A DNA stretch of 61,956 nt, counting the filler. It is 7 parts of 7 records of this genome, joined end to end, with 100 filler letters (N's around TTAATTAATTAA, not from the genome) between each part and the next. Parts side by side here need not be neighbours in the genome. Positions count along the whole stretch, not along the records: positions 45,141 to 61,956 come from SRR31156797_25633; 6 more parts are not named here. One strand, written 5' to 3'. Position numbers and translations under genes: made by a program. Each line of letters begins with the position of its first letter. Position 1 is the stretch's first letter. The notes under the pieces were generated by a model, which did not search any database, was not told the origin of the DNA, and saw only the letters and a program-made list of their open reading frames with translations. Positions 45,141-61,956 of this stretch are shown here, one piece after another.

Positions 45141-46283
45141 CCATTCGCCGTCTTCCTTGACCTTGATCCAGGCAAGGCCTTTGGAGCCATAAATTTCAAC
45201 AAACTTGGTGTACTGATCGATCTCCTTGCGGGACAGGGTCGCACCGCCGGGAACGAGCATGACCTTGACCAGTTCGGAAGAAGCGAAAACCTTGAAGCCG
45301 GAGTTCTTGAACACGTCGGTGATGTCGATGTGCTTCAACTCGAAACGAAGGTCAGGCTTATCTACACCATAATAATTCATGGCGTCAGCAAAACTCATGC
45401 GAGGGAACTCGGCGGGCAGTTCCACGTCGATAGTTTCCTTGAACAGGGTCTTGACCATACCTTCGGCCATATCCTGAATCAGGGCTTCGTCGGTGAAGGA
45501 CATTTCGATATCGATCTGAGTGAACTCGGGCTGACGGTCAGCGCGCAGGTCCTCGTCGCGAAAGCATTTGACGATCTGGAAATACCGGTCCATGCCGGAA
45601 ACCATAAGCATCTGCTTGAACAACTGAGGGGACTGGGGCAAAGCGTAGAACTCGCCCTGATTGACGCGACTGGGCACCAAAAAGTCACGCGCCCCTTCAG
45701 GGGTGGACTTAGTCAGGACCGGAGTCTCGACTTCAAGGAAGCCGAGGGCGTCCAGATAGCGACGCACAGACTGGGCAGCCTTGTTGCGGATAATAAAATT
45801 CTTTGCCAACGAAGGCCGACGCAAATCGAGGAAGCGATACTTGAGGCGCAGGTTCTCGCCCACTTCCACACGATCTTCGATGGGGAACGGCGGTGTATCG
45901 GAGGTGTTAAGCAATTTGTACTCAAAAACCTCAATCTCCACTTCACCGGTGACCATATTCGGATTGGCCATACCTTCGGGACGAGGCCGGACCTTGCCCT
46001 TGATTGCCACCACATACTCGGGGCGGATGGCGTGGGCGCGTTCGTGTACCTCTGCATTTTCCTCAGGATTAAAGACCACCTGAGTCAAACCTTCACGGTC
46101 ACGCAGATCGAGGAAAATCAATCCCCCATGGTCACGTCGGAACTGGACCCAACCCATGAGGCAGACTTCTTCGTCCATATTGGCCGCGGTCAGCTGGTTA
46201 TTGTGATGCGTACGGCGCCAACCGGCAAGGTCTTCAATGACGCGAAACTCTTCGTAGTCCCGTTCTTCCTGATGTTCAGACAT
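45141..46283 (-). CDS. aspS: Aspartate-tRNA ligase (likely non-discriminating), 3'-partial
   Basis: [38 protein letters not shown]. Confidence 0.97.
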
Positions 46284-46343
46284 TATTTCTCCAATCTCTC
46301 AAATGATGTCGGTCCGAGCTTTGCCGAACCGCAATAGTCATAT

Positions 46344-47585
46344 TTATAATTTCGCCAAGTATTCTGAACGGCTCAGGGTTTCCTGATCACGCTCTTCTTC
46401 CATGTACTTGACGGTGATAGTCTCGTTTGCCAACTCATCGCCACCCATTATCAGGCAGACTTTTGCGCCGGATTTGTTGGCCGCACGCATGCGGGACTTC
46501 ATGGACCCGCCGGAAAAACTCGTTTCGCCCTTAAAACCTTTGTCGCGAAGCTGCTGGGCAAAGAGCATTGCGGCGTTGGCCGCGCCCTTGTCCACTACTG
46601 CGAGATAAAAGTCAGGTTTGTCCAACTCCACCTGATCCAACAACAGAGCCAAACGCTCCATGCCGCAGGCAAAACCCGTGGCAGGACAGTCTGCGCCACC
46701 GAGATTCTTGATCAGGCCGTCATAGCGGCCACCACCGGCAACGGCGGTCTGGGAACCGATGTCATAGGACGCCACCTCAAAACAGGTGCGCACATAATAA
46801 TCCAATCCGCGCACCAATCGGGGATTCAATTCGTAGGCAACACCGGCGCCATCCAAAATGGTCTTCACATCTGTAAAATGTGTTTCACATTCCTCGCACA
46901 GATGATCGGTTATGCTTGGGGCATCCGCCACTAAGTCCTTGCAGGCGGGCACCTTGCAATCAAGGACGCGCAACGGATTGGTTTCCATACGACGCTGGCA
47001 GTCTTCGCAAAACTGCTCCTTATCCTTGGACAAATAATAATCCACCAAAGCCTGCTTGTAGGTGGGACGACACTCGTGGCAGCCCAACGAATTCAACTCG
47101 ATAGTCAGCTTGGTCAGTCCGAGGCTGTTCAGAAAAGAGCGGAGCATGAGAATCAGCTCAGCATCAGCCTGTGCTTCGGGAGCACCAAAAATTTCGGCAT
47201 TGATCTGGTGGAACTGACGCTGACGGCCTTTTTGAGGACGCTCATAGCGAAACATCGGACCGAACGTGAAATATTTTGAAACCTTGCCGGGCTGATGTGT
47301 TTTTGATTCGATGAATGCACGGACAACACCTGCCGTGGCCTCAGGGCGCATGGTCAAGAAACGATTCTTGCGGTCAGGAAAAGTGAACATTTCCTTGCCC
47401 ACCACGTCTGTATCTTCACCGATGGATTTCTGGAACAACTCCGTCTTTTCCAAAATGGGTGTGCGCAATTCGCCAAACCCGTATCGCGTGAAGGCCTCAC
47501 GGGCCTGAGACTCCATAAATGAGAATTTGGCGGCCTCTTCTGGGAAAAGGTCCACGAATCCTTTGATTTTTTGTACTTTCGCCAT
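46344..47585 (-). CDS. hisS: Histidine-tRNA ligase
   Basis: RPEATA, FRYERPQKGR, RGLDYY, GGGRYD; start moved to MAKVQ. Confidence 0.97.
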   Translation of the reverse strand: MAKVQKIKGFVDLFPEEAAKFSFMESQAREAFTRYGFGELRTPILEKTELFQKSIGEDTDVVGKEMFTFPDRKNRFLTMRPEATAGVVRAFIESKTHQPGKVSKYFTFGPMFRYERPQKGRQRQFHQINAEIFGAPEAQADAELILMLRSFLNSLGLTKLTIELNSLGCHECRPTYKQALVDYYLSKDKEQFCEDCQRRMETNPLRVLDCKVPACKDLVADAPSITDHLCEECETHFTDVKTILDGAGVAYELNPRLVRGLDYYVRTCFEVASYDIGSQTAVAGGGRYDGLIKNLGGADCPATGFACGMERLALLLDQVELDKPDFYLAVVDKGAANAAMLFAQQLRDKGFKGETSFSGGSMKSRMRAANKSGAKVCLIMGGDELANETITVKYMEEERDQETLSRSEYLAKL

Positions 47586-47920
47586 GTCGCGTTCAATATC
47601 CTTAATAAGTGTCAGGTCGCTGGAACCGAATTTGGTTAGACCATTCGACGCCAATTGTCAAAAAATGACTATTGAACGCTCCTTTTTTTCGTCATTTTTC
47701 ACAACTCGCGCACAAACGATAAATCAATTTCAACTCAATGAACATATGAGTAGGCATTGACATCATTAAATCACGGGAGTATTTCCCAAAAAGTTTGTTG
47801 CAGAAATCAAATACGGATTTAGACGGCGAACAGAGCAGGCAAAGGGCCTGATTATTTTTTCAGCAACACTTGGCATTTTTGCCAAGCATTACCTCTTGAC
47901 CAATGATAAAGGAGTTACTG

Positions 47921-48295
47921 ATGGACGAGTTCAATGACATCTTGGAAGAAATGGACTTTCAATTCTTTGGAGCTGGCGAACATGGCATGAGCGTTGAAGA
48001 TATGCGCCACGCAATCGGCAACGATCACTTCCTTTTTCTGGATGTCCGCACCAACGAAGAAGTTGCCCACGTAGCCTTCCCGTTTGCCAAACACATTCCG
48101 CTCGACGAATTGCCGAAACGTCTGGATGAACTTCCCCGCGATAAATTCATTGTGACCTTCTGCGCGGCAGTATTCCGTGGTGCCATCGCTTTTGCCTACC
48201 TGCGAGCCAACGGCTTTGATGAAGTCAAAGGACTGACCGCATCGCTGGAAGACATGGTCATGCCATTCAAACCCGGCCCGCTGGCTAAAATCTAG
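47921..48295 (+). CDS. Single-domain rhodanese
   Basis: FLDVRT..E, HIPL..L, active-site FCAAVFRG; AAGGAG RBS. Confidence 0.88.
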   Translation: MDEFNDILEEMDFQFFGAGEHGMSVEDMRHAIGNDHFLFLDVRTNEEVAHVAFPFAKHIPLDELPKRLDELPRDKFIVTFCAAVFRGAIAFAYLRANGFDEVKGLTASLEDMVMPFKPGPLAKI

Positions 48296-48362
48296 CGTTT
48301 ATGCCGCGTCGTAGCAGACTTTCTGACACGACGCGGCTTATTTTTTATACGAGAATTATGGT

Positions 48363-49115
48363 ATGTCCACCCTTGAATTCATCATCGCGATCCTCTCATT
48401 CAGTCTGAGTTTTATTTTTGCCTTGGGTGGTGTCGGTTCGGCTCTCGTCCTCATTCCGACCCTGACATGGATGGGGGTCCCCTTGAGCATGGCACGACCA
48501 ACCGGCCTGTTTGTCAATGCCGTCTCCATGCTCGGTGCGACCTATTCCAATATCAAAGAAAAGCGTCTCGACTTTCGCCTTGGTGTACCCATCATCGTGG
48601 CCTCTATCCTTCTGGCACCGGCAGGAGCCTGGGTGGGACATCTTATGCCGACCCGCATGGTGCTCATAGTTTTCATCGGCTTTCTCATTTTCGCAGGAAG
48701 CATGATGATCTTTTTCAAGAGTTCAAAATATGCCGATCAATACCGAAAGGACAGACCTGTCTTCGGCCCGCTGCTGGTGGGGGTCGTCGCCGGTTTCTTC
48801 TCCGGTCTGCTCGGCGTAGGCGGTGGCGGACTTATTTCTCCACTCATGATCCTGCAAGGATTCAATCCTAAAAAAGTAGCCGCAGTGACGGCTCTCGCCG
48901 TTCCATTCTCTTCACTTTCGGCCTTTGCCGCTTACGCTGCCATGGGGTCCGTCTCTTGGCGACTGCTTATCTTCGCTGGCCTTGCTGCATGGGGCGGAGG
49001 GTACCTTGGCACCAAGGTCATGCAACGAAAAATGCGTCCCGGCACAGTCAAAAAATTCCTCGGTGGTGTCCTGCTCGCTCTCGCGATGAAACTCCTCTGG
49101 CAAACCCTTTCTTAG
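48363..49115 (+). CDS. TauE/SafE (TSUP) family sulfur-compound transporter
   Basis: GGVGS and SGLLGVGGG motifs; multiple TM segments. Confidence 0.9.
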   Translation: MSTLEFIIAILSFSLSFIFALGGVGSALVLIPTLTWMGVPLSMARPTGLFVNAVSMLGATYSNIKEKRLDFRLGVPIIVASILLAPAGAWVGHLMPTRMVLIVFIGFLIFAGSMMIFFKSSKYADQYRKDRPVFGPLLVGVVAGFFSGLLGVGGGGLISPLMILQGFNPKKVAAVTALAVPFSSLSAFAAYAAMGSVSWRLLIFAGLAAWGGGYLGTKVMQRKMRPGTVKKFLGGVLLALAMKLLWQTLS

Positions 49116-49229
49116 ATCCATCACAAACTGCAGATGCTTGTTCCCTGATAAAAACAAACACGCTATCGCACTCGATATGCATTTGACCTAAGAAGAAAAC
49201 TCCTCCAAACTTATGGCTGGAGGACGATC

Positions 49230-51128
49230 ATGACTATAACCACGGCCTGCACCATGGACTGCGGGGACGCCTGTTCCCTTCTTGTCGACACAGACAAAAA
49301 ATCCATCAAAGGCAATCCCAAGCACCCGTTTACCAAAGGCTTCTGCTGCAAAAAAGGCAGCCGGTATTTCGAACGTCTTGACGCCGAGGACCGCATTGTC
49401 ACGCCTCTCATCAGGGAAAACGGTAAATTTCAAGAAGCTTCATGGGATGAAGCCATGGATTTGGTGGTAAAAAAACTGGATACAGCACGAGCTGTGCCTG
49501 AATCCATTCTGCACATTCACGGACACGGCTACCGTGGAATACTCGGCAAAGCGAGTGACATTCTCTTCAACAAGCTTGGGTCCTCCACCACATATGGCGC
49601 GGTCTGCGACGACACAGGTATCACCGCGTCCATCCGAGATTTTGGTGTCCTCAACCACAACGCTCCTGAAGATATCCTGAACGCCAGCCGCGTTATCAAC
49701 TGGGGACGCGACCTGACACGATGTTCCATCCACCAGCTCGCGCTCATCCACAAGGCTCGTAAAAACGGCACCGAGGTGCTGACCATCTCCCCCGGCGGAG
49801 ACGGCACCGCAGAATTTTCCGATGTCAACGTCGTTATCCGTCCCGGCACAGACCGATTCCTGGCTGCCGCTGTCCTCAAACTCTATCTGGAAGCCGGCGA
49901 CCTCAATCCGTGGGTTCTGAATCGTACGTTCAACTGGCCCGCCCTTCGAGGTCTTATCGACGGCATGAGTTTCAATGAGTTGTGCTCGGCTTGCGAAGTA
50001 TCATCTTCGGATGTCGAGATGATTTACGACTGGTATGCCGACACAGGCAACGTTGCCACGATCATCAGCTGGGGTGTCCAACGCCATGTTTTTGGCGGCG
50101 AAAACGTCCGCTTCATCAATGCGTTGGCAATGATTTCCGGCAACATCGGCGTTCCCGGGGGAGGGGCATATTTCAATGTTTCCTCAGGCCGTGATCTCGG
50201 TACTTGGGAGCATCTGGTCACAGGAGGCAACTCGGCTAAACGCCGTGAACTTCTCATCCAAAACATTGGTGCTGAAATACAAAAAGCGACCCCACCCATC
50301 GAGTTCATCTGGGTGGACGGGCACAACATCGTCAATCAGGTCCCGGATTGCCTTTCGATAGTCGAGGCCTTTGCCAAACCCTTTGTGGTCGTAGTGGACG
50401 GATTCATGAACGACACAGCCATGCAAGCTGATGTCATCCTCCCGCCCGCCTTCATGTTTGAACGTGAAGATGTGCTCGGCTCATTTGTCCACAATTACGT
50501 GAACCACTGTGCAGCAGTCGTCAAACCACGCGGTCAATGCCGATGCGACTTCGACATATACAGCGACTTAGGCTCACGCCTGACCGACCCCATCACTTTC
50601 CCGGACAGCGAGACCTGTATTAGGGAAGGACTGAAGCAGGCCGACATCTCTTATGATGAACTCATGGAAAACGGATTCGTTAAAGTACACCACCCTTCCG
50701 TGGCCTTTGAAAACATGCAGTTCGGCCATCTGGACGGGTTATATCGTTTCCCGGAAGAGCTTCACCCAGAGCCACAACGCGACCCGGATTACCCCTTGCA
50801 ACTCCTCTCTTTAGTGAGTGGCAAATATCTTCACTCCCAAATCCCGGAAAAAGATCAAGCTGGAGCTCCGGTGGTTTTTGTGTCTAAACAAAATCCGGCA
50901 TGGGGCGCACTCAATCCAGCCATGGACACCTACCTCGTCACACCGGAAGGCGCGATGCAGGTCAAGGTTGATACCGTAGAGGACCTGCACCCCCGTGCGG
51001 TTATCATCCGTCGTGGCGGGTGGATGAAATATGGACAAAATGCTAATGTCATCATCAAGCCCATGATGACGGACATGGGTGATGGGACAGCGTATTACAG
51101 CCAAAGCTGTCGATTGGAAAACAGATAA
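49230..51128 (+). CDS. Cytoplasmic molybdopterin-dependent oxidoreductase
   Basis: CTMDCGDAC, HPFTKGFCC, SWDEA, RPGTD, ADVILP; no Tat signal. Confidence 0.9.
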   Translation: MTITTACTMDCGDACSLLVDTDKKSIKGNPKHPFTKGFCCKKGSRYFERLDAEDRIVTPLIRENGKFQEASWDEAMDLVVKKLDTARAVPESILHIHGHGYRGILGKASDILFNKLGSSTTYGAVCDDTGITASIRDFGVLNHNAPEDILNASRVINWGRDLTRCSIHQLALIHKARKNGTEVLTISPGGDGTAEFSDVNVVIRPGTDRFLAAAVLKLYLEAGDLNPWVLNRTFNWPALRGLIDGMSFNELCSACEVSSSDVEMIYDWYADTGNVATIISWGVQRHVFGGENVRFINALAMISGNIGVPGGGAYFNVSSGRDLGTWEHLVTGGNSAKRRELLIQNIGAEIQKATPPIEFIWVDGHNIVNQVPDCLSIVEAFAKPFVVVVDGFMNDTAMQADVILPPAFMFEREDVLGSFVHNYVNHCAAVVKPRGQCRCDFDIYSDLGSRLTDPITFPDSETCIREGLKQADISYDELMENGFVKVHHPSVAFENMQFGHLDGLYRFPEELHPEPQRDPDYPLQLLSLVSGKYLHSQIPEKDQAGAPVVFVSKQNPAWGALNPAMDTYLVTPEGAMQVKVDTVEDLHPRAVIIRRGGWMKYGQNANVIIKPMMTDMGDGTAYYSQSCRLENR

Positions 51129-51144
51129 AACATTGAGGGAAGTT

Positions 51145-51303
51145 ATGAAAACATGGAAAAAATTTATTCTGGTTGCCTGTGTGCTCACCATGCTCATTCC
51201 TGCATTCGGATGCAGTGAAGAAGGTCCCATGGAAAAAGCGGGTAAACAACTCGACCAAGCTGCTGACGATGCTGCTGACGCAGCCAAAAAAGTATTCGAA
51301 TAG
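51145..51303 (+). CDS. Small lipoprotein
   Basis: MKTWKK...AFGC lipobox followed by EGPMEKAGKQLDQAA. Confidence 0.75.
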   Translation: MKTWKKFILVACVLTMLIPAFGCSEEGPMEKAGKQLDQAADDAADAAKKVFE

Positions 51304-51445
51304 ACCTGCACACGCCTTACCACGTAAAATAGCCTCTTCACATTGATGCTTCTTTAAAGGAATCATGAGAGTGGAGAGGCTTTTTCCATATCTAAAGGCA
51401 ACATGCAGCTTGCACAATGACCACTTTGAGAGTAATGATTCCTGA

Positions 51446-52720
51446 ATGCAAGCACGTTCAATAAAGCCCCTTCCTCCGGCGAGGCAGGTGGCGCTCGAAG
51501 CACTTTTCCGTTGCCTCATGAATAAGCAGGACATTCAGGCTGCTCTTGATGTAGCGCTCTCCTCCGGCGAAATTGACCCCCGCGATGCGGGCCTCGCCAC
51601 TGAACTCTCTTACGGGTATCTCCGTTATAAAAAACGAATAGAATATGTATTGTCGCGGTTCCTCAAGGATCCCAGCAAACTGACACCAAAAATGCGTCTG
51701 GCCATAGGTGTCGCGGCTTACGAAATCCTCTTTCTCGATAAAGTTCCCGCGTACGCTTCCGTGGACTGGGCCGTAGAATTTTCCAAATCCAAACCGGGCG
51801 CACGACTTGCCGGTCTGTTCAATGCCGTTCTCCGGCGAGTATCCGAACTGGGCGACACTGCTCACGACCCGGATTTTTTCCGTAAGGACGCATCGTTGCC
51901 CGAATTTCTGAGTCGCTGGTACTCCTGCCCGCAATGGCTGGTTGACCTGTGGTGGCGGGAATACGGAGAAAAAGACGCCACCCAGTATCTTGAAGCACAA
52001 CTCAAAGCACCAGCCCTCGGCTTTAATCTGTATGGTCATCCCGAAGCAGAAGAACTGTACGGAGAGATTGCTGGCTGGCCGGAAATTATCGATATCGAAG
52101 GTATGAGCTTTGCCCTGCCTGCAGGGACCTCTTTTGAAGGAGAACCCGATCCGCCCATGTCCCGACAATCCTTTGCGGCACGTCAGGCTGTGGAGGCACT
52201 TGATCCTGAGAAATGGAACAGCCCAATCTGGGACGCATGCGCCGGACGTGGCGGCAAGACTCGGATATTGCTCGAAAAAAACATGCCCGTCTTTGCCTCA
52301 GATCCACACAAAGGTCGACTGGCCGCACTTCAACGGGAACTTCCTGACGTAGAAACCTTTGTGGCCAATGCGGCTACGGATTCTCCGCCGAAAAAGCCCG
52401 GTTCCATCCTGCTCGATCTTCCCTGCTCCGGACTGGGAGTCCTGTCTCGCAGGCCTGACACAAAATGGAAGCGCAAACCCCACGATCTGGCCGACCTGAC
52501 GCGCCTCCAGACCGAGATTCTGCAAAACGCCTACGACCATCTCCTTCCGGGGGGGGAAATCGCCATCATCACCTGCACTTTAAACCCAGAAGAAAACGAA
52601 GGGTTGATCGAAAAATTCGTCAGTGCCCACCCCAAGGTTTCGGTAAAAAAAGAATGGACCACACCACCGAATTCCCCGCTCAATGAATTCTTTTATGCAA
52701 CATTGCTCAAAGTGAATTAA
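51446..52720 (+). CDS. rsmB: NusB-domain/RsmB-type RNA m5C methyltransferase
   Basis: N-terminal NusB-like FNAVLR; WDACAGRGGKT, DLPCSGLG, TCTLNPEEN. Confidence 0.85.
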   Translation: MQARSIKPLPPARQVALEALFRCLMNKQDIQAALDVALSSGEIDPRDAGLATELSYGYLRYKKRIEYVLSRFLKDPSKLTPKMRLAIGVAAYEILFLDKVPAYASVDWAVEFSKSKPGARLAGLFNAVLRRVSELGDTAHDPDFFRKDASLPEFLSRWYSCPQWLVDLWWREYGEKDATQYLEAQLKAPALGFNLYGHPEAEELYGEIAGWPEIIDIEGMSFALPAGTSFEGEPDPPMSRQSFAARQAVEALDPEKWNSPIWDACAGRGGKTRILLEKNMPVFASDPHKGRLAALQRELPDVETFVANAATDSPPKKPGSILLDLPCSGLGVLSRRPDTKWKRKPHDLADLTRLQTEILQNAYDHLLPGGEIAIITCTLNPEENEGLIEKFVSAHPKVSVKKEWTTPPNSPLNEFFYATLLKVN

Positions 52721-52734
52721 CACAGAGATGTCCT

Positions 52735-52772
52735 AAAAAAAGGCCCTGCCATTCACCAATGGCAGGGCCTTT
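52735..52772. terminator. Bidirectional intrinsic terminator
   Basis: A7-GGCCCTGCCATT...AATGGCAGGGCC-TTT between convergent genes. Confidence 0.85.
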
Positions 52773-52788
52773 ATCATAACCGTATTCT

Positions 52789-53373
52789 CTACCGTGCACC
52801 CAATTTCGCTCCCAGCCAATTTTTCGGAGTGACTGACTCCGGCACACCTTCTCGTGCGTCCACACCCCGCGCTTCGCGCAATTTATCTTGATAAACCTTC
52901 CAATAGGACTGAGCCAACGTGGTGGAACCTGAAAGCGGGTATGCCAAAGTTGCAGCCATACGCGCCGAAAGTGTTTCGGCCAGCAGGGAATCATACTTCT
53001 TTGGATCAGCCTCACAACGGACATAGGAGATAAATAGCGGGGCTTCCTCGTCACACAAAATGATATTGGATTGAATTTCCCAATCACGGACTTCTTCCCC
53101 GTTGGCACCGACTACTTGAATTATACGCAAAAAATCCACAGGCAGGTTGTACTTGTATTCCCACCGCCACAAGGGGGCCACTGTCCCGGCGGCCAGCTCG
53201 GCCTGAGCCATGGCGCAATTCCAAGGGTGAGACCGCAAGACGGCATCACGCACGGCAGGCCAACGATGATTACACAACCCCGCAGCCTTTGAATTGTCCC
53301 CAAGGGACATGATAACGTCCTCACCCAAATCAAGCAGTGCATTGTTACAAATCTCAATCACACTCGTTGCCAT
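52789..53373 (-). CDS. Phage tail tubular protein A / head-tail adaptor-like protein (T7 gp11-like podoviral family), solitary
   Basis: S..EICN.AL..LGE..I.SL...S..A..C, RDAVLRSHPWNCA, W.Y.Y.LP.DFLR, LA..LAYPL, L.EAR..DA.EG; GAGAGG RBS 8 nt before the ATG at 53373. Confidence 0.75.
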   Translation of the reverse strand: MATSVIEICNNALLDLGEDVIMSLGDNSKAAGLCNHRWPAVRDAVLRSHPWNCAMAQAELAAGTVAPLWRWEYKYNLPVDFLRIIQVVGANGEEVRDWEIQSNIILCDEEAPLFISYVRCEADPKKYDSLLAETLSARMAATLAYPLSGSTTLAQSYWKVYQDKLREARGVDAREGVPESVTPKNWLGAKLGAR

Positions 53374-53615
53374 AGTCATTACCTCTCTTTTCACTCGTTC
53401 ATTGAGTGCATCCCGGCGGCACGGCACTATGACCGCACCCAAAAAAGATAGCACGGATTTCGAACAACCCGACAAATGTTAACGAATGTCATAAAAAAGC
53501 AGACGATCGGCATATAAAAGCGCCTTGACATACTTCTCAATCAAGTCACCCTACGGACAACAAAAAAAGCGCCCTCCCAAATCGGAAAGGCGCCTATGAA
53601 AAATCACTTCAAGGA

Positions 53616-54611
53616 TTACACTTCGTCGAACAATCTCCGAATTTCATCCATGTCCGAGGTAAGCCCAAGGGCGCACATCAACCGAATTCGCGCCTTAGGA
53701 CCACCCAACCTTCCGCAGAGGATAACCCCCTTGCTCTCAAGGTCTGCGCCGCCGCCGGGATATCCATACACCGGCCAAACCCCGCCTTCGATACACCGGG
53801 TTGCCAACACTACAGGAATACCATCTTTCATACACTCTTCAAGGCCGGGCACGGCTTCCGGCGGGATATTGCCTGCGCCAAACCCTTCAACGACAACACC
53901 TTTGATTCCAAGACTTTTAGCATTATCGATAAATGACCGGTCCATTCCCGTATACGCGGTAATAAGGGCTACATTCTCATCAATGGATTCCGGACTGATT
54001 TTCCGCCTCCGATTGGGGGTAGAATGTCGCCTCGCCAGAACGACGGACTCCCCAGCAACGTATCCAACCACCCCAGCCTCCCGAGACTCGAATGCATCCA
54101 CATTCAGAGAATTCACCTTGACGGCTTCACGGGCAGAAAAAATACGATCGGTCATCAAAATACAGGCGCCGACACCTGAAGGCAACGGGAGCAGACAGGC
54201 ACGAATACCATTAGTCAAATTACGAATGCCGTCATACCCGGATTCTGAATAGTAGCGCATAGACCCGGTCAAAATAATCGGTTTGTCCGAATCAATGACA
54301 AGATCACACATGTAGGCTGTTTCGACCAAGGTGTCGGTGCCATGCAAAATAATAGCTCCGATGACACCCTCTTCACTCAAAGCTGCTTCAACGTCCCTGG
54401 CAAGTTGAAACATGTCCTTCGGCGTCATGTGAGGACTCGGTTTGTCCGACCACAAAACAGGCCGCAAGGATACATCTTCACCTTGGGGAACAAGCTGTTT
54501 AAGCAGTTGGTCGAAGTTACCGCCGGGAGCGACTCCTGGCACACCTTCAACCGGAGACATTCCAATAGTTCCACCTGTAAAAAACACTGCTATTTCAGTC
54601 TTTTTTGCCAT
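53616..54611 (-). CDS. L-asparaginase (cytoplasmic)
   Basis: TGGTIGM, HGTDT, TGSMR, EGFGAGN. Confidence 0.93.
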   Translation of the reverse strand: MAKKTEIAVFFTGGTIGMSPVEGVPGVAPGGNFDQLLKQLVPQGEDVSLRPVLWSDKPSPHMTPKDMFQLARDVEAALSEEGVIGAIILHGTDTLVETAYMCDLVIDSDKPIILTGSMRYYSESGYDGIRNLTNGIRACLLPLPSGVGACILMTDRIFSAREAVKVNSLNVDAFESREAGVVGYVAGESVVLARRHSTPNRRRKISPESIDENVALITAYTGMDRSFIDNAKSLGIKGVVVEGFGAGNIPPEAVPGLEECMKDGIPVVLATRCIEGGVWPVYGYPGGGADLESKGVILCGRLGGPKARIRLMCALGLTSDMDEIRRLFDEV

Positions 54612-54640
54612 ACTTCATCCATTGTTGCGGTTCGTTGCAG

Positions 54641-55267
54641 TTATTTGTTTTTCAAAGAGTTTACCTGACAAGCAACGGCCTCTTGCAGAGCCTTGCGGAA
54701 GACATTCTCATGCACAGCTCCCGTAATGGGAGGCACGTTCTCGACAATAAACGTCGGCAATGCGGTCACGCCAGCGGCACGCGCTGCTTCAGACCCTGCG
54801 GCGACGAGCTCAGCATATTCGTGTTCTTCAAGGGCCGCTTGAAGCCCTGCCCGACCAAGACCACAGGATTCACCCACATCCAACAGTACTTCCATGTCAC
54901 CGATGTTCTTTCCATCCGTAAAACCGGCTTTGAAGACCGCGAGATGAAATGCGTGATAAGCTCCATGCTCGCGAGCATACTCTGCAGCTTCAAGAGAAAG
55001 TCGGGTGTTGCTCAACAAGGCCATATCGCCAAAGGCAATTCCATACGGCTTACCTCGTTGGTTACATGTAATGACGGCCTGATCAATATCAAACTGGTTG
55101 AAGCGCTCAGTCATTGGTTGCCCCTGCACCGGAGTTTCCGGGTGCAGTTCGTGCGGAACCCATGTGTCCTCAATATCAAATTCATTTTTTAGGTGGTCGA
55201 CAATCCCCGTGCCGACATAGCAAAATGGTCAACCAAAATCAGAAAAGACTCGTATCTTGATGGGCAT
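54641..55267 (-). CDS. DsbA/FrnE-family selenoprotein (UxxC), 208 aa
   Basis: MPIKIRVFSDFG-U(TGA at 55231-55229)-PFCYVG...ELHPETP continues in frame into the 54641..55129 ORF; GVTALPTF. Confidence 0.85.
55196..55216 (-). promoter_or_regulatory. Bacterial SECIS hairpin
   Basis: GUCGGCA-CGGGGAU-UGUCGAC, starting 13 nt 3' of the UGA, with a G-rich apical loop. Confidence 0.7.
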
Positions 55268-55404
55268 AATGTTTCCTTGTTTTTCCAAATCTAAGTTTCA
55301 GGCGGGAAAAGTAAAGGAACATTTTTGGATGGTAGCGTTCAAAAAGTAAGGGGAAAACAAGTACTAGACGGCATCAATCTCACTTATAAAAGTTGCTAAA
55401 GCTC

Positions 55405-55578
55405 AAACAAAAGAAATCGGTCGGGAGCCTTTCCTCTCTCCCGACCGATGAGTCAGTCATGCAGAGATAACTGACACGTGCCGGGTAGGCACAGGGACTC
55501 TCAAACCTCGCATATACCCGGCTGTCTTGGTTCGATGGTATATCGAACCTAAAACAAAATTCACAATTCATATCCTTC
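55405..55578 (-). ncRNA. Candidate sigma54-dependent structured small RNA (~175 nt)
   Basis: Four consecutive hairpins, the last a 12-bp terminator with a U-rich tail; G-U wobbles favour the minus strand; sigma54 promoter directly upstream. Confidence 0.6.
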
Positions 55579-55588
55579 TTTCAACTCA

Positions 55589-55604
55589 TGCAAAATGAAG
55601 GCCA
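55589..55604 (-). promoter_or_regulatory. Sigma54 (-24/-12) promoter
   Basis: TGGCCTTCATTTTGCA, with GG-N10-GC spacing. Confidence 0.65.
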
Positions 55605-55853
55605 TAAAAACCAGCCCTATTTGGCCGCTTTTTCTTTGAAACAGCGGCTTTTCTTTACATTTTTAGCAAAATCTCAAAACGGAATTGCCCTTTTTGGCAA
55701 ATTTACTCATTTTAAATTTTCACCAAACAGCAGGGCCTTCTCGATTCCTTTATTCTATTTTTCAATTACCCATTTGACCTGTTTCCCTGACAGTTATATA
55801 TTATAGATAATAAGAACAGCAATCTGGGAGCACGCCGAACGAGGGAGGTTCCC

Positions 55854-56306
55854 ATGCACATGAAGACAAAAAGCGCACTGGCCGTATTTACGGGCCTCCT
55901 TGTGGCCTTTGCCACGGTCTTTCTCTTTGACTACACCGACAATTACATGGAGGACCGTTTTGTCCGAGCCATCGAAAAACAAAAAACCTATGTAGGGGAT
56001 ACTTTTTCATTGGATGCACTCATGGAATACTACGACTGGGACGTCGTTTGTATCCTCCTGCCGGGCGAAGAACATTCCCTCAAAAACAGACTGGGACGCC
56101 CATATAAAGGAAAGAAGATAGGCCCGAATTCATGGAGCTTAATTTTCGTCAAAGGCAAGAGCGTTCTTGCGGAAATCCCCATAAAACGAACTTTCCTTCG
56201 CCCACCACCCCAACTTAAAGAGGAATGTTTCGAAAGATGGGCTGCCATCTTCAGTGTCAACTATGATCAAAACGGCGACTTGCGACTTTTCGTTGTCGAC
56301 CAATGA
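55854..56306 (+). CDS. Membrane-anchored hypothetical protein
   Basis: GGAGG RBS; N-terminal TM helix; 6 nt upstream of the sirtuin gene. Confidence 0.7.
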   Translation: MHMKTKSALAVFTGLLVAFATVFLFDYTDNYMEDRFVRAIEKQKTYVGDTFSLDALMEYYDWDVVCILLPGEEHSLKNRLGRPYKGKKIGPNSWSLIFVKGKSVLAEIPIKRTFLRPPPQLKEECFERWAAIFSVNYDQNGDLRLFVVDQ

Positions 56307-56312
56307 GGCACC

Positions 56313-57056
56313 ATGTCCAATCACGCCCTTGAGAATGCAGCTCAGGCACTCAAAAACGCACGCTGCGCCATGGCCTTTACCGGCGCGGGAATTTCCGTAG
56401 AATCTGGCATACCGCCTTTTCGCGGCCCCGGAGGAGTCTGGTCTAAATATGATCCGGACAAATTTGAAAAAGGATACTTCAAACGGCACCCAGATGAAGT
56501 CTGGCCGCTCCTGAAGGAAATATTCTTTGACATGCTGGGGAAAGCCAAACCCAACCCGGCGCATATTGCGTTAGCCCAATTGGAAAGCCAAGGGAAACTG
56601 GCTGGAATCGTCACGCAAAACATTGACTCATTGCATCAGGCTGCGGGCAGCTCAGTGGTCCACGAATATCACGGCTCCACCCGGCGTATGCAATGCATGA
56701 CTTGCCGCACATTTTTCGATTCTCATTCCATTTCTCTGGATAAGCTTCCCCCGGCCTGTCCAGCCTGTGGAGGATTGCTCAAGCCGGATTTCATTTTCTT
56801 TGGTGAAGGCATTCCCACTGAAGTACACCATGCGGCAACAGACCTCGCCAAGCAATCGGACGTCTGCCTGATCGTGGGCACAGGAGGACAAGTCATGCCT
56901 GCCGGACGCATTCCGTATATCGTGAAAAATCGTGGCGGGACAATCATTGAAATCAATCTCTATGATACGGACTACAGCTACACGACCAGTGACTATTTCC
57001 TCCAAGGAAAAGCCGGAGAAATGACGCCGAAATTGGCACGGTTGGCGATGGCGTAA
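56313..57056 (+). CDS. cobB: NAD-dependent protein deacylase (sirtuin)
   Basis: GAGISVESGIPPFRG, TQNID.LH, HG, zinc-binding CxxC pairs. Confidence 0.93.
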   Translation: MSNHALENAAQALKNARCAMAFTGAGISVESGIPPFRGPGGVWSKYDPDKFEKGYFKRHPDEVWPLLKEIFFDMLGKAKPNPAHIALAQLESQGKLAGIVTQNIDSLHQAAGSSVVHEYHGSTRRMQCMTCRTFFDSHSISLDKLPPACPACGGLLKPDFIFFGEGIPTEVHHAATDLAKQSDVCLIVGTGGQVMPAGRIPYIVKNRGGTIIEINLYDTDYSYTTSDYFLQGKAGEMTPKLARLAMA

Positions 57057-57138
57057 TGATTATCCGTACTTCATTCAAACAAAAAGCCTCTCATCCATGA
57101 AATGGACAAGGGGCTTCGCCTTTCCTTTGTAAAAAAAC

Positions 57139-58116
57139 TTATGCAAGGTCTTTCTGGTGCCAATCCCAAGCGGTTTGCACGATGTCTCGAACATCGCCGA
57201 ACTGCGGTTTCCATCCCAGCACTTCACGCGCGGCTTTGGCTGAACTGACAAGAGCCGGGGAATCTCCGGGACGGCGGCCAGATTCTGTCACCGGGATATC
57301 CTTACCCGAAACTTCCCGCGCTACATCAATAATTTCACGTACCGAGAAGCCATTGCCATTGCCAAGGTTGAAGGCTCGCGATGCTCCACCTGACTCAAGG
57401 AACTCCAACGCCTTCACATGCGCATTCGCCAAGTCGGTAACATGAATATAATCACGCAGGCAGGTACCATCTGGAGTGGGATAATCCGTTCCAAAGATGG
57501 TAATATTATCGCGCAAACCAAGCGCGGCATGTAAAATAAGCGGGATAAGATGCGTTTCCGGCTGATGCCGTTCGCCGATTTCACCATCGGGGTCTGCGCC
57601 TGCAGCATTGAAATATCGCAAACATATGTGCTTGAGGCCATAGGCATGATCATAATCAGCCAACATCTGCTCAATCATCCGCTTAGACCATGCATAGGGA
57701 GACAACGGAGAAAGAGGGTGATCTTCAGCGATAACATCAGTTACCGGCTCTCCGTACACTGCCGCCGTTGATGAAAAAACCAGTCGCTTCACATCGGCTT
57801 CCAGCATGGCATCCAACAAATTCAAAGTATTGCGAACGTTATTTCCGTAATATATGTCAGGTTTTGCCACGGATTCTCCCACGGCAATAAACGCGGCAAA
57901 ATGCAGGACCTCACCAATATCATGTCGGGAAAAAACGCCTTTCAAAAACGCAGGATCGGCCAGATCACCCTGCTCAAACTCGCCCCATTTGAGGAAATCA
58001 CGGTGGCCGGCAACCAAAGAATCCAAAACCACGACCTCACGCCCCAAAGAAGCCAAGGCTTTGGCCGCATGGGAACCAATATATCCGGCACCGCCGGTGA
58101 TAAGTGTCTTTTTCAT
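57139..58116 (-). CDS. galE: UDP-glucose 4-epimerase
   Basis: TGGAGYIGSH, FSSTAAVYG, YAWSK, LRYFNAAGA, RDYIHV. Confidence 0.95.
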   Translation of the reverse strand: MKKTLITGGAGYIGSHAAKALASLGREVVVLDSLVAGHRDFLKWGEFEQGDLADPAFLKGVFSRHDIGEVLHFAAFIAVGESVAKPDIYYGNNVRNTLNLLDAMLEADVKRLVFSSTAAVYGEPVTDVIAEDHPLSPLSPYAWSKRMIEQMLADYDHAYGLKHICLRYFNAAGADPDGEIGERHQPETHLIPLILHAALGLRDNITIFGTDYPTPDGTCLRDYIHVTDLANAHVKALEFLESGGASRAFNLGNGNGFSVREIIDVAREVSGKDIPVTESGRRPGDSPALVSSAKAAREVLGWKPQFGDVRDIVQTAWDWHQKDLA

Positions 58117-58163
58117 GAGGTCGTCATACTCCACTGATCAACGAAAGAGAAGTGGACTTTGTG

Positions 58164-59798
58164 CTATGACTGCATACGTCCGATCAATTCCTTGAGAGAT
58201 CCGGCCAGGGTGGATAAATCATTTAACGCGGCCCGGGACTCGCCCATGGCGTGAGCTGTTTCACTTGAAATGGTATTGATCTCATCTGTAGCCCGATTGA
58301 CCTGCTCACTCGTCGCAGACTGTTCTTCCGCTGCCGTGGCAATGGAGCGAACCTGATCCGCAGCTGTATCCACACTTTCCCGAATGCGCTGCATGGATTC
58401 ACCGGCCTTGGAAACCAGTTCCGTGGACTGTTGAATTGAAGCAACCGCATTCTCCGTGGCCGCAACATTTTCCTGTGTACCCGTACGGATGGACTGGATA
58501 GCCCCATGCACTTCCTTGGTCGCGTCCATGGTCTTCTCTGCCAGCTTGCGCACTTCATCCGCAACCACGGCAAATCCACGCCCGGCCTCACCGGCACGGG
58601 CTGCTTCGATAGCCGCATTTAACGCTAACAAGTTGGTCTGGTCGGCTATATCATCAATGACCTGCATGATAGCCCCGATGTCTTCAGTCTGCCTATCCAG
58701 TCCGGCCATGGACTCCTTGAGTTGTGCCGACTGTGTACCAACACCTTGAATCGCACCGACCACCTGATGCACCAACTCAGCCCCTTCTTCAGCGATACTG
58801 CGCATCCCCTCCGCATTACTGGAGGCGTCAGCTGCATTTCGAGCGACTTCGAGAACCGTGGCATTCATCTGTTCCATAGCCGTAGCGGTTTCACTGGCCC
58901 GATCCCGTTGAATGTCCGAACCATGGCTCGCCTCGTCCACCTGCTGCGTCAACATCGAAGACGCGGCGTCGAGCTGATCTGCGATGGAATCGGCTTCCTT
59001 GGCTGTTTCCATGAGCAATTCATGTTGATGTTTAGCCTCTTGCTCACTTTGCTTGATTTCGGTTGTCTCGGTCAGGATAGTAAAAGCACCAACAATCTTC
59101 CCATCCAAATCCTTAATCGGTGAAATATCCACGAGCAGATGATATGGACGGCCCTTGCGCCCTTCGCCAGCGGTGGCCTGACCGATGATGACTTTGTCTT
59201 CGCGCATGCACTGACCAAGCATGGTGGATCGATTGGCATCACCATAAACGAATTCAGCCATGGGCATACCAATAAAAGTTTCCGGAGGTTCATCAATCTG
59301 AAGTAAATCAAGTTCAGGCTGATTCAAAAAAGTGATAACCTCATCCTGATCAACAACCACACAAGGTTGGGTCATGTTGGTCAACAACCCTTGCGACATA
59401 CCCAGCTTGGTCTTGAGTTCCGCTGTCATGTCCTGCACGGCACCAATGGTTTCACTGATGATGTCCTTGGCTTCGTAATGAATGGTGGCGTTGTAATTGC
59501 CCTTGGCCACCTCATGCGTAAACTCGGAAAGATTGGAAAGGGGCTTGATCAAGGTCTTGACCAAAATGGCGCCGCCAAGGAAAGAGACCAGTATTCCGCA
59601 CGTGACTATAATAGCACTGATTAACAAGACGCCATTGATAATGTCGTCTCGACTGGCTTGATCAAGATTCAATCCATCCAGGACGGAATTGACCTGAAAA
59701 ATGATACCACAGGCAAGAATGATGGCCGTAACTGCCACCATAAAGACAACACCGCTGACGAGCTTGAAACGAAAAGGAACTTTCTTCGGATTGAACAT
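58164..59798 (-). CDS. Methyl-accepting chemotaxis protein (TM-HAMP-PAS-MA)
   Basis: [40 protein letters not shown]. Confidence 0.95.
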
Positions 59799-59978
59799 GT
59801 GCACCCACCCTGATTGGTTGCCGGAATCGACCGTCCACATCCGCACGGGACAGTCAATACTCTAAATATTCTTTAGACCACTACGAGGCCCAAAGAAATC
59901 TGTCAACCAGGGAGGCTGAAATCAAGGGACAAACACACCTGCAATCGCGACTATTTTCATGCCTACAACACGAGAAAA

Positions 59979-60518
59979 TTACTCGTCGCTACTCCACATG
60001 CCGCTATGGACCCAGCCAAGATATTTCCGTGCGAGAAACCCAGCGACTTCCTTGGCGTCATCAAGACCGAACTTGGGCACATCCGCATCCACGCCCCGAT
60101 CTGTCACCATGGCGATGATATTCCTGTCATCCTGATTCTGTCTGGTGCATAAAGGATTCTGATGCACGTCCCCACGATGCACTTCAACTTTGGGGCTGTC
60201 GGAATTGAAATAACCCTCGGTCAAAATCATGTGTTTTCCCGGGAACAGGCTTTCCGCCAATTCAGGCAAGGTATGTTCATGGTCCACACTCTTGATCATG
60301 GCAATTCTGTCAGGCGAAGAGATGACCACGGTCTCAGCTCCGGCCTGTTTCAACCGCCAGGAATCCTTGCCCTCATGATCAATTTCAAAAGAATGAGCGT
60401 CGTGCTTGATAGCCCCCACGGACACCCCAAGGGCTTTCAACTCTGGCAGCAATTTTTCAATGAAAGTTGTTTTGCCGGACTTTTTCTTTCCGACAATGCA
60501 TATAATCTGTGGTTGCAT
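59979..60518 (-). CDS. mobB: Molybdopterin-guanine dinucleotide biosynthesis protein B
   Basis: GKKKSGKTT, IKHDAH.FEID..GKDSW, EG. Confidence 0.93.
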   Translation of the reverse strand: MQPQIICIVGKKKSGKTTFIEKLLPELKALGVSVGAIKHDAHSFEIDHEGKDSWRLKQAGAETVVISSPDRIAMIKSVDHEHTLPELAESLFPGKHMILTEGYFNSDSPKVEVHRGDVHQNPLCTRQNQDDRNIIAMVTDRGVDADVPKFGLDDAKEVAGFLARKYLGWVHSGMWSSDE

Positions 60519-60664
60519 ATATCCCCCTCATTTTCGTCAAATTTTGGTCCTTTTGGCAGGAAAAATGACTATACGCAAGCGCAAAGAAAAAATCGACGAC
60601 TCTTTACATCAATCCGTACCGGTGCCACTCTATTTCATCCATACTTTCGACGACAAGGACGGTT

Positions 60665-61876
60665 ATGAACAGTATTATCCCCCGCCAACGCGCTCTTCGC
60701 ACCCTGTTAAGCCAGACATCACCCATACCGCCCACAGTAGTGCCGCCCTTTGAAGGTGTCGGCAATGCCACCGCCGAGGCTGTGAATGCTGCTTGTCAGG
60801 TCCCGGAAAACGCATGCTCTGTCAGGGATGGATATGCTTTACGCGCGGTCGATATTGAACGGGCAACTGTTTTGAACCCGGTCCGCCTGGAGGTCAAACA
60901 AGCCATACACGCGGAATCCCGAGACCCGAAACATCTCGGCCACGGAGAAGCGGCCAGAGTGCTCACTGGTGGACCTGTACCAGACGGAGCCGATTCCGTA
61001 CTGGCCGAAGAAGACATTGAAATCGACGGATCAACCATCATTGTTCGTGAGCCTGTTCGCAAGGGCTGGTTTGTCCGCCCTGCCGGTGGTGAGATCGATG
61101 CAGATACGCTCATTGCCCCACAAGGACAGATCATATCGCCACAGGCCGCAGCCGTCATGACCCGCACACGAACCGGGTTGATCAAAATTCACCCCACCCC
61201 CACGGCACGGCTTATTGCGCTTGGCAGCGAGTTGATAGACCCGACCATCCATGATGATCCCACCCGTTTCCCGGCAGACAATCTTGTTCTACAACGCGGC
61301 CTCTTTGAATCAAGTGGCGTTGCTGTTATCGACGCAACAGTCGTCCCCGACAACAAAGACACACTTATTTCAATGCTCAATGGCCCGATACTTCCCGAGC
61401 TGATCGTCACGACCGGCGGCACAGGCCGAAGTGAACGGGATTTCGCACAAACAGGGGCTCTCGAAAGCGGATTCACCATGCTTTTCGAAGGAGTGGACAT
61501 ACGACCGGGGCGCCACGTCTTTGCCGCTGTCCGTGACAACACTCTGCTTTTCGGCCTGCCCGGACCGCCCGCCGCAGGCCATGCCTGTTTTCACGCGCTC
61601 ATCCTGCCCGTCATCCGCCGTTTGCGTGGATTACCTGACCAATCCGAACCGCTCATGGCCCGATTCACTCAAGGTATCAGCGCACGTCCCGGCAGCGAGT
61701 GGCTCGTTCAATGCGCTCTGTCGCTGCAAGGTTCACAGCTTACGGCGACACCTTTGGCAGGGAAAGATGTCCCTCCCATGGTTGGCCTCTCCCAAGCCAA
61801 TGGAGTAGCCATTCTCAAAGGTGGAGAAGCCATTCTCCCCGGCGAAGAGGCCGAAATTGTGACTACTTTATTTTAA
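60665..61876 (+). CDS. moeA: Molybdopterin molybdenumtransferase
   Basis: SVRDGYA, TGGPVP.GAD.V..ED, TTGGTG, RPG, GLPG.P. Confidence 0.9.
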   Translation: MNSIIPRQRALRTLLSQTSPIPPTVVPPFEGVGNATAEAVNAACQVPENACSVRDGYALRAVDIERATVLNPVRLEVKQAIHAESRDPKHLGHGEAARVLTGGPVPDGADSVLAEEDIEIDGSTIIVREPVRKGWFVRPAGGEIDADTLIAPQGQIISPQAAAVMTRTRTGLIKIHPTPTARLIALGSELIDPTIHDDPTRFPADNLVLQRGLFESSGVAVIDATVVPDNKDTLISMLNGPILPELIVTTGGTGRSERDFAQTGALESGFTMLFEGVDIRPGRHVFAAVRDNTLLFGLPGPPAAGHACFHALILPVIRRLRGLPDQSEPLMARFTQGISARPGSEWLVQCALSLQGSQLTATPLAGKDVPPMVGLSQANGVAILKGGEAILPGEEAEIVTTLF

Positions 61877-61956
61877 AAATACCTCCGGCGGCCGAGGGAG
61901 GGAAACCCCTTTGAAAAGGGTTCTTCCCTCCCCTTCCCCCAGACCCCCATCCTCTC
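61877..61956 (+). repeat. Probable palindromic interspersed repeat (REP-like) at the window end
   Basis: CCTCCGGCGGCC...GGGAGGGAAACCCCTTTGAAAAGGGTTCTTCCCTCCC hairpin followed by CCCCCAGACCCCC. Confidence 0.5.

Follow-up and report, generated by a model that had tools for sequence, protein, structure and literature searches.

A solitary podovirus-type adaptor gene in Desulfovibrionaceae as a probable member of a scattered, phage-derived and co-regulated particle system

RcGTA, the gene transfer agent (GTA) of Rhodobacter capsulatus, is siphovirus-like; its genes form one main cluster of some 15 kb, with a small number of ectopic loci besides. The Dd1 particle of Desulfovibrio desulfuricans is short-tailed and contains about 13.6 kb of host DNA. 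To our knowledge, the genes of Dd1, which was reported in 1987, have not been assigned by experiment, and GTAs outside the Alphaproteobacteria have barely been characterised at the gene level. The portion of PMC6854486 available to us gives only a predicted TerS, Ddes_0720, for Dd1, and that of PMC11841831 speaks of only cursory characterization of such agents so far; an excerpt of PMC12946183 presents FpGTA, from Faecalibacterium prausnitzii, as the first podovirus-like GTA-like element to be described. The present study concerns a gene for a podovirus tail adaptor of the T7 gp11 type ("tail tubular protein A"), found in a 61,956-nucleotide stretch of DNA (hereafter the window). All positions refer to the whole window, which consists of seven contigs joined by N's. 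The adaptor gene lies in the last of these (45141-61956); the joins within 7479-45140 are marked by paired runs of 44 N, and distances spanning joins are meaningless. To judge from comparative sequence analysis, this gene probably belongs to a domesticated, co-regulated particle system of phage origin (a GTA-like viriform), whose genes are scattered over the chromosome and kept in Pseudodesulfovibrio and related Desulfovibrionaceae. The chances that this system actually transfers DNA appear to be about even.

The identity of the protein was established by profile and sequence searches. The product aligned nearly from end to end with PHROG 394 ("tail protein"; E 2.8e-52, residues 3-190 on profile positions 2-188 of 190) and also matched phrog_9239 ("tail tubular protein", E 2.1e-13); no Pfam family matched it. 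A sequence search of the PDB returned 8ck1_E, the connector protein of phage Carin-1 (E 1.1e-10). The closest isolated phages were Pelagibacter podophages of about 35 kb, whose "tail tubular A" proteins are up to 42.6% identical to it (E 7e-42), and one relative among the protein-search matches carries the name "tail tubular protein A" in UniRef. T7 gp11, KP32 tail tubular protein A, the Carin-1 connector and the corresponding proteins of HTVC100P and HTVC024P are of the same family and length (185-222 aa) as the window protein. An AlphaFold2 model submitted to Foldseek gave four matches at E ≤ 0.001, all of them podovirus adaptors (Carin-1, LME-1, HRP29 and PhiM1), followed by Kp7, T7 gp11 and KP32 tail tubular protein A, the latter two at E 4e-3 to 9e-3. 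By its sequence, the protein is of the dodecameric adaptor type that joins the portal to the tail nozzle in T7-like podoviruses, and is predicted to form a ring here as well.

In T7-like phages the adaptor gene lies within a contiguous virion module, whereas in the window it stands alone between rsmB and an asparaginase gene (ansA), with a promoter and a terminator of its own (Table 1). The open reading frame (ORF) is intact and its product begins with MATSV. An alternative 228-aa frame starting from a TTG codon extends into the promoter element and the orthologues begin at MATSV; hence, the 194-aa reading is the right one. The terminator following the adaptor gene, between this gene and the convergent rsmB, has a predicted stability of -30.4 kcal/mol (z -6.17), equalled by none of 200 shuffled sequences; that of ansA (-21.8 kcal/mol, z -4.15) shields the adaptor gene from read-through. 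Since strong terminators flank it on both sides, the gene constitutes a transcription unit of its own. Thirteen of the 14 other large ORFs on the contig carry cellular Pfam domains (aspS, hisS, rhodanese, TauE, Mo-oxidoreductase, rsmB, asparaginase, DsbA-like, Sir2, epimerase, the chemoreceptor MCP, MobB and MoeA), and in the Pfam search none of the 14 gave a phage or integrase domain or a replication gene. When structural and associated proteins of relatives (31, then 16) were compared with the whole window by tblastn, the adaptor was the sole match. The adaptor locus is not part of a prophage. These results bear out what a preliminary description of the locus had read from the letters: an intact 194-aa ORF of the T7 tail tubular protein A type, with a ribosome binding site of its own, monocistronic, set between rsmB and asparaginase genes and between terminator-like hairpins, and lying on a 17-kb contig free of integrase and other phage genes.

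The chromosomal site is conserved. In what follows, G numbers designate genomes of relatives and L numbers their loci or contigs. G177, the closest genome reached, encodes an adaptor 95% identical to that of the window in the same gene order (aspS, hisS, rhodanese, TauE, oxidoreductase, rsmB, adaptor, asparaginase, DsbA, a 150-aa protein, Sir2, epimerase, chemoreceptor); the rsmB products are 94.6% identical. The rsmB-adaptor-ansA site is also common to three of 39 loci (L002, L003 and L008), in which the adaptor is 78-83% and rsmB 79-81% identical to the window's. An HD-GYP-type (HD_5) signalling gene is inserted at the site in these three loci, between the asparaginase gene and the adaptor promoter (L008:7903-9258, minus strand); the window and G177 lack this gene and their asparaginase-adaptor gap is only about 240 bp.

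Between the window and G177, nine of 194 adaptor residues have changed, against 99 of 194 third codon positions. Nonsynonymous divergence (dN) was 0.028 for the adaptor gene, as compared with 0.030 for hisS, 0.030 for rsmB, 0.059 for ansA and 0.187 for the DsbA-like gene, while synonymous sites were saturated (pS 0.76). Thus, the adaptor gene changes at the rate of hisS and rsmB, in line with the dN/dS below one that had been anticipated. Across relatives, adaptor identity tracks the identity of rsmB and hisS, and the frame is intact in 43 of 44 genomes, the exception being an internal TAA in G131. The gene is under strong purifying selection and is inherited vertically with the chromosome.

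A protein search yielded 247 relatives at E ≤ 0.001. The best 120 of these are 60-97% identical, mostly 192-195 aa long, and come from Pseudodesulfovibrio, Salidesulfovibrio, Paucidesulfovibrio and unnamed Desulfovibrionaceae. Among 301 Desulfovibrionaceae genomes sampled, 179 had an adaptor match at E ≤ 1e-5, and these matches were bimodal: 44 genomes at 57-95% identity, mostly in single copy, then a gap down to 43% or less. In a quick tree, the window and G177 grouped together (support 98) within a Pseudodesulfovibrio clade that followed taxonomy; the deeper branches were not resolved, and the tree leaves unsettled whether the compact locus L026 (see below) falls inside or outside the Desulfovibrionaceae group. 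Both the single-copy orthologues and the agreement with the species tree had been named as checks in the preliminary description, and both were found, the latter within the limits of the quick tree.

Companion virion genes were sought in the genomes of relatives, of which the closest is the one with 95% adaptor identity. A longest-ORF caller gave many shadow ORFs in these GC-rich loci, and a codon-usage caller was used instead. Genes for large terminase (terL), portal, major capsid protein, adaptor and gp12-like nozzle were each present in five of five genomes (G001-G005), and every gene searched for was found in four others (G177, G290, G226 and G300; the G300 portal was seen outside the profile search). 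In these nine genomes (eight for the portal) each of the five genes occurred once, the G177 capsid gene being split (see below) and G001 also having a second set. Isolated portal, capsid, terminase and tail tube B genes, as proposed initially, are therefore a reality in the relatives. In four complete chromosomes the set spans about 352 kb (G001, CP195092.1), 433 kb (G002), 529 kb (G177) and 276 kb (G226), with units 10-380 kb apart and cellular genes between them. All ten intervening genes tested were cellular by Pfam (rhodanese, cytochrome c, cyclase, cupin, TraB/GumN, SlyX, Dus, EamA and ZIP), as were six genes flanking the units of G001 (EamA, CBS, metallo-beta-lactamase fold, Dus, glycosyltransferase and MBOAT). 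The set of G005 spans 18 kb and is already interrupted by cellular genes.

The surroundings of the adaptor gene vary across 37 related loci. It lies beside the capsid gene in L016, L018 and L024, beside the portal gene in L023, L025, L028, L029 and L031, divergent from a portal-to-fibre block in L037, and about 6 kb from the nozzle unit in L006, L007, L010 and L012; ten of the 37 loci have it alone, with no other structural gene in the DNA fetched around it. Portal, capsid or nozzle genes also adjoin it in L021, L026 and L033-L036, but not in the window. At the compact end stands L026, a 38.6-kb contig from a metagenome-assembled genome record, where terL, portal, a small protein, a scaffold/protease-like protein, major capsid protein, an 84-aa protein, adaptor, gp12-like nozzle, and internal virion and large proteins form one block; its adaptor is 56% and its terL 64-66% identical to those of the scattered sets. 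The loci form a fragmentation series, one end being a compact block in phage-like order and the other single genes separated by hundreds of kilobases. Pairwise identities of the five genes in seven genomes were correlated (r 0.89-0.98, values of a kind that relatedness inflates), which fits a single history shared by all five.

The second set of G001 (2130544-2140342, L122) is compact and divergent, and comprises nozzle, adaptor, 84-aa protein, capsid, scaffold, portal and terminase; its adaptor is 36-37% identical. It is probably a prophage of the same phage group. This set and L026 are the closest relatives in phage-like order: both are contiguous, with small early-type ORFs upstream, and both lack the promoter element pattern described next.

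Orthologous adaptor loci share the motif TGTCAAG and, 82-83 nt later, the sequence GAAAACC(C/G)G(T/G)GnTA running into TAnnnT. The same architecture precedes the capsid, portal, terminase and nozzle units, with a variant 5' box, (C/A)GTCAAG, at the nozzle unit and at the G001 terminase operon. Scanning five genomes for the pattern TGTCAAN{62,70}AAAN{2,5}GKGNTA gave 37 sites (5-12 per genome), as opposed to four for the reversed pattern used as a control. Eighteen of these sites precede structural units, 14 precede genes for small Rhs-type proteins (mini-Rhs, see below) and two precede a two-gene unit; of the remainder, two are longer (86-87 nt) and look like chance and one has no assigned unit. 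Neither 400 kb of unrelated G177 DNA nor the compact second set of G001 contained a match to the pattern. A consensus was drawn from 40 distinct copies. Copies are more alike within a genome than between genomes: ACATTC..ACATT is common to G001, G177 and the window, G300 has two instances of CGCCCGTTTT, and TACCCGTTT is found in G002. This is the pattern expected of sites co-evolving with one binding protein. A putative sigma-70-type -10 box ends the element copy ahead of every unit. The -10-proximal boxes fall into two classes, GTGnTA (a TGn extended -10) in the adaptor, capsid and two-gene units and GGGnTA in the portal, terminase, nozzle and mini-Rhs units; by their sequences, these classes may set different expression levels.

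The preliminary description had pointed to an extended -10-like sequence, TGCTATCTT, and to an imperfect palindrome at 53471-53490, and had proposed that the palindrome would recur before the other scattered genes. Both exist, inside the 82-nt element, and a shared upstream sequence is indeed present; what is conserved is the element of 82-83 nt rather than the 20-nt palindrome, which is kept as a palindrome only in the closest relatives. A reading of the element as an RNA was dropped: it shows no RNA structure (z +0.5) and the three Rfam matches within 52600-53750 were all far below gathering scores. A scan for sigma-70 consensus called no promoter at the element. Because its -35 region is poor, the promoter is assumed to depend on an activator. 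No T7-type single-subunit RNA polymerase (PF00940) was found in five genomes in a search run without positive control, a weak indication that the promoters are served by the host polymerase.

Features of the window and the composition of the units in its clade are collected in Table 1. The fibre of unit 5 matches tail-fibre PHROGs over profile positions 1-128 through its N-terminus, and in G001 this unit has a 759-aa DUF7483 protein after the fibre.

Table 1. Coordinates and make-up of the adaptor locus, of the structural units in the window's clade, and of element-linked mini-Rhs genes
Feature	Position	Strand	Basis or context
Adaptor gene, T7 gp11-like ("tail tubular protein A"), 194 aa, stop included	52789-53373	-	ORF reading, PHROG 394, structures, dN
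Shine-Dalgarno-like GAGAGG, 8 nt ahead of the ATG at 53373	53382-53387	-	Direct reading
Promoter-like element, 82 nt: TGTCAAG, about 65 nt, GAAATCCGTGCTA	53449-53530	-	Local scan, genome scan, consensus
-10-like TATCTT into which the element runs; TG at 53452-53453	53445-53450	-	Sequence reading
Intrinsic terminator 3' of the adaptor gene: 15-bp stem, 4-nt loop, U7	52732-52772	-	Folding
Intrinsic terminator of the asparaginase gene, upstream of the adaptor gene: 12-bp stem, U7	53567-53595	-	Folding
rsmB, convergent with the adaptor gene; cellular, outside the system, marks the conserved chromosomal site	51446-52720	+	Pfam, synteny
Asparaginase gene (ansA), upstream cellular neighbour, outside the system	53616-54611	-	Pfam, synteny
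Unit 1: 134-147-aa membrane protein (phrog_2524), protein of about 300 aa without match, large terminase			Window's clade
Unit 2: 92-aa protein, portal, small protein, scaffold			Window's clade
Unit 3: major capsid protein, 84-aa protein			Window's clade
Unit 4: adaptor alone			Window's clade
Unit 5: gp12-like nozzle, internal virion protein, gp17-like fibre, fibre assembly chaperone (Pfam Phage_tail_APC)			Window's clade
mini-Rhs	L130:1637-2944; L143:1639-2898; L144:1596-3083		Element-linked, relatives
mini-Rhs	L140:302-1447; L131:16-1446; L132:268-1485; L157:271-1479	-	Element-linked, relatives

The mini-Rhs genes of the relatives are multicopy, encode 374-496 aa and start 15-55 nt after an element copy (211 nt at L137). 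Up to seven or more matches occur per genome, and 67 of 301 genomes of the family have them at E ≤ 1e-40. The first 300 or so residues consist of YD-shell repeats (TEN_YD-shell, E about 1e-17, profile positions 601-866 of 909). In eight sequences compared, the core ends in an invariant DDPVN..DP.GL followed by unrelated C-termini, and G001 has three copies with near-identical N-terminal parts and different tails. The proteins thus display the traits of Rhs/YD polymorphic toxins: YD repeats, DPxGL and a variable C-terminal domain. They begin directly in YD repeats and lack both a full shell of more than 1000 aa and a delivery domain at the N-terminus; nor was any domain recognised in them that would direct them to a virion or to secretion. 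The idea that they serve as tail fibres was set aside, as a gp17-like fibre N-terminus and a fibre chaperone were found.

The element also stands ahead of a two-gene unit at L145:1639-2638 (G001 3923013) and at L156 (G226 2219642). The first gene encodes 193 or 228 aa and the second, whose product has a hydrophobic segment at its N-terminus, 146 or 171 aa; neither gave a Pfam or PHROG match. These proteins are candidates for lysis, regulatory or virion functions.

Taken together, the scattered single-copy genes of the relatives, synteny, selection and the shared element support the initial proposal of a domesticated virion gene belonging to a scattered GTA-like system co-regulated in trans; the particles and transfer belong to the following model. 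A putative host-encoded activator acting in trans would bind the element and turn on all units together, the adaptor being expressed from its own promoter upon activator binding. Capsid, scaffold and portal would assemble into a prohead, which the terminase would fill; adaptor, nozzle and fibres would then close the head to give a short-tailed particle. The membrane protein of the terminase unit and a transglycosylase may aid release. Since the genes span hundreds of kilobases (276-529 kb, as against 38.6 kb in the compact relative), no head could carry all of them. A particle unable to package its own genome would, if the terminase works, have to take up host DNA as cargo.

A number of observations weigh against this model or narrow its reach. 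As regards the predicted gp11-like fold, the top Foldseek matches are podovirus adaptors, but the agreement is loose: the model, for which 26 relatives were aligned, is of moderate quality (pLDDT 71.7, pTM 0.35), and its TM-scores to the adaptors were only 0.26-0.31 with an rmsd of about 25 Å. By the Nei-Gojobori method (NG86) applied to 34 adaptor sequences, the median dN/dS was 0.34 (range 0.09-0.81, 379 of 561 pairs unsaturated), with dS so near saturation as to make this ratio a poor guide; 182 of the 561 pairs were saturated, including all 33 with the window, and the window-G177 comparison was used instead. The regions fetched showed no large ejection proteins resembling those of 449 and 1369 aa in L026. 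Of the 44 genomes with an orthologous adaptor, 21 yielded a terminase of the system's type at 64% identity or more, namely all 14 of the window's clade (adaptor ≥ 75%) and seven of the 30 outside. No terminase of this type was detected at E ≤ 1e-100 in the other 23, and the five of these that were tested, incomplete assemblies included, gave none even at E ≤ 1e-5, although all five keep an intact capsid gene. The gap could be due to loss or replacement of the terminase or to incomplete assemblies. Because the terminase was not found in genomes that keep the capsid gene, DNA packaging may not be the conserved function everywhere.

A further complication lies in the G177 capsid gene, which is split near residue 230 by an insert of about 42 kb (2431510-2473490, L115-L117). 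With a large serine recombinase beside the junction, a gpA-type terminase, a D5-type primase and a J-type tail fibre, this insert is identified as a siphovirus-like prophage. Like some serine-integrase elements, the prophage may be able to excise and so restore the capsid gene; alternatively, its insertion may just have put the system out of action. The interruption need not apply to the window's organism, since sequencing run X1, from which the window's DNA may come, contains one 6,645-bp contig with the 84-aa gene and a whole, unbroken capsid gene. This contig is about 86% identical to G001, and its loose end, upstream, reads as the 3' box of the element, GAAAAACCCGTGCTAG. For the window's own organism, the presence of the other loci may be assumed from the relatives and from this one X1 contig.

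Other explanations were weighed against the same body of evidence. Solitary phage genes are common in bacterial genomes, and the part of PMC6006170 available to us counts 75 "degenerate" prophage elements in Desulfovibrio genomes; the adaptor ORF could in principle be inert debris of an old prophage that happens to be still open, and the relatives' genes unrelated remnants. This seems most improbable for a gene whose dN is at the level of hisS and rsmB while its synonymous sites are saturated, whose frame is intact in all but one of 44 genomes, which occupies the same chromosomal site in four other genomes, and which shares its history with four other genes and a conserved element with every unit. 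Conservation that was merely an artefact of recent transfer would show as near-identical DNA, synonymous sites included, and this is not the pattern seen. Alternatively, the adaptor alone might have been co-opted for a cellular task, structural or envelope-related, and be conserved for reasons unconnected with the other phage-derived genes. Its isolation in the window and in ten of 37 related loci would suit such a role, and so would the possession of its own promoter and terminator. We nevertheless hold it to be very unlikely: the promoter element is the same as that of the capsid, portal, terminase and nozzle units, adaptor divergence tracks that of the genes in the other units (r 0.92-0.94), and in other lineages the adaptor gene is still beside a portal, capsid or nozzle gene. 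It may also be asked whether the scattered genes belong to a temperate phage that is still infectious or can be induced, or arise from faulty assembly or binning of such a phage; the compact relative L026 and the second set of G001 at 2.13-2.14 Mb might suggest so. Yet that second set is divergent and devoid of the element, the contig of the window's gene has no integrase or replication gene, and in four complete chromosomes the units are separated by as much as 380 kb of DNA with cellular genes; the likelihood of this explanation is negligible.

There is a modest chance that the particle is phage-derived and selected for something other than gene transfer, be it a weapon or delivery device together with the co-regulated mini-Rhs proteins, or an empty or protein-loaded particle. 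The element lies directly before 14 mini-Rhs genes in five genomes, and the build of these proteins, with the C-terminal part of a YD-shell, the invariant DPxGL and unrelated C-termini, is in keeping with such a role; so is the failure to find the terminase in 23 of 44 adaptor genomes in the face of a capsid gene in five of the five tested. On the other hand, the retention of a terminase 79-90% identical to that of G001 throughout the window's clade (14 of 14) would be difficult to account for if no DNA were packaged. The mini-Rhs proteins lack any domain by which they would recognisably be targeted to a virion or secreted, and with a gp17-like fibre and its chaperone already present they are not needed as fibres; moreover, a shared promoter is a sign of co-regulation only, not of physical association. 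In the more specific form of this explanation, which we consider a long shot, the one element would drive both the scattered podovirus-derived machine and the mini-Rhs genes, and the particle would be a capsid-based device for kin discrimination, released with or loaded with polymorphic toxins. If so, lineages without the terminase would keep the particle for that second role. On balance, a domesticated particle system of the GTA-like kind is favoured.

Related sets were noted further afield. Compact clusters in Inquilinaceae (Alphaproteobacteria; L033-L036) have an adaptor 45-48% identical to the window's. They also contain scaffold, capsid and nozzle genes, and downstream lie two or three paralogues of about 195 aa arranged in tandem. 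Maridesulfovibrio has an adaptor family of its own (197 aa, 70-100% identical among named species and 35% to the window's). In G178 this adaptor adjoins the nozzle, with the portal 124 kb away (3616319-3619002 and 3491865-3493352; L128, L129), and no capsid or terminase was matched there by the queries used. The Maridesulfovibrio set may be a second, separately scattered system.

The system is of interest in several respects. Its units, tied together by one regulatory element whose copies evolve in concert within each genome, would represent an unusually advanced state of domestication, and the series from compact to scattered loci makes the takeover of a phage by its host directly approachable. 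It also provides a testable parts list, which comprises five or more units, a defined element, a fibre together with its chaperone, and candidate members for lysis and the regulon; the isolates concerned are in culture, genetically tractable and non-pathogenic. As prophage finders look for clusters, scattered systems of this kind escape them. No published description was found in the literature on Pseudodesulfovibrio and gene transfer agents; the supplementary prophage lists of PMC6006170 might include some of the genes.

GTAs as such are already known; what appears new here is a fully scattered, promoter-tagged viriform of T7/HTVC019P-like type, which on comparative grounds is a strong candidate for an undescribed gene transfer agent. 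Like RcGTA and RcGTA-like systems, as portrayed in the portions of PMC5026251 and PMC10883770 available to us, it is phage-derived, vertically inherited, under purifying selection, spread over several loci and too scattered to package itself. RcGTA is switched on by host factors in trans, and the shared element suggests a trans co-regulation here too. No homology to RcGTA genes was seen, none having been sought beyond PHROG annotations. With FpGTA, according to the same excerpt of PMC12946183 as above, the system has in common a GTA-like nature, a probable podovirus-like type and more than one locus; FpGTA differs in having two operons and in residing in a Firmicute. Dd1 and the system described here occur in the same host family. 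Unlike RcGTA, however, the latter would descend from a T7/HTVC019P-like podovirus ancestor and has no main cluster, its units, at least five in number, being distributed over 276-529 kb with a copy of the element at each.

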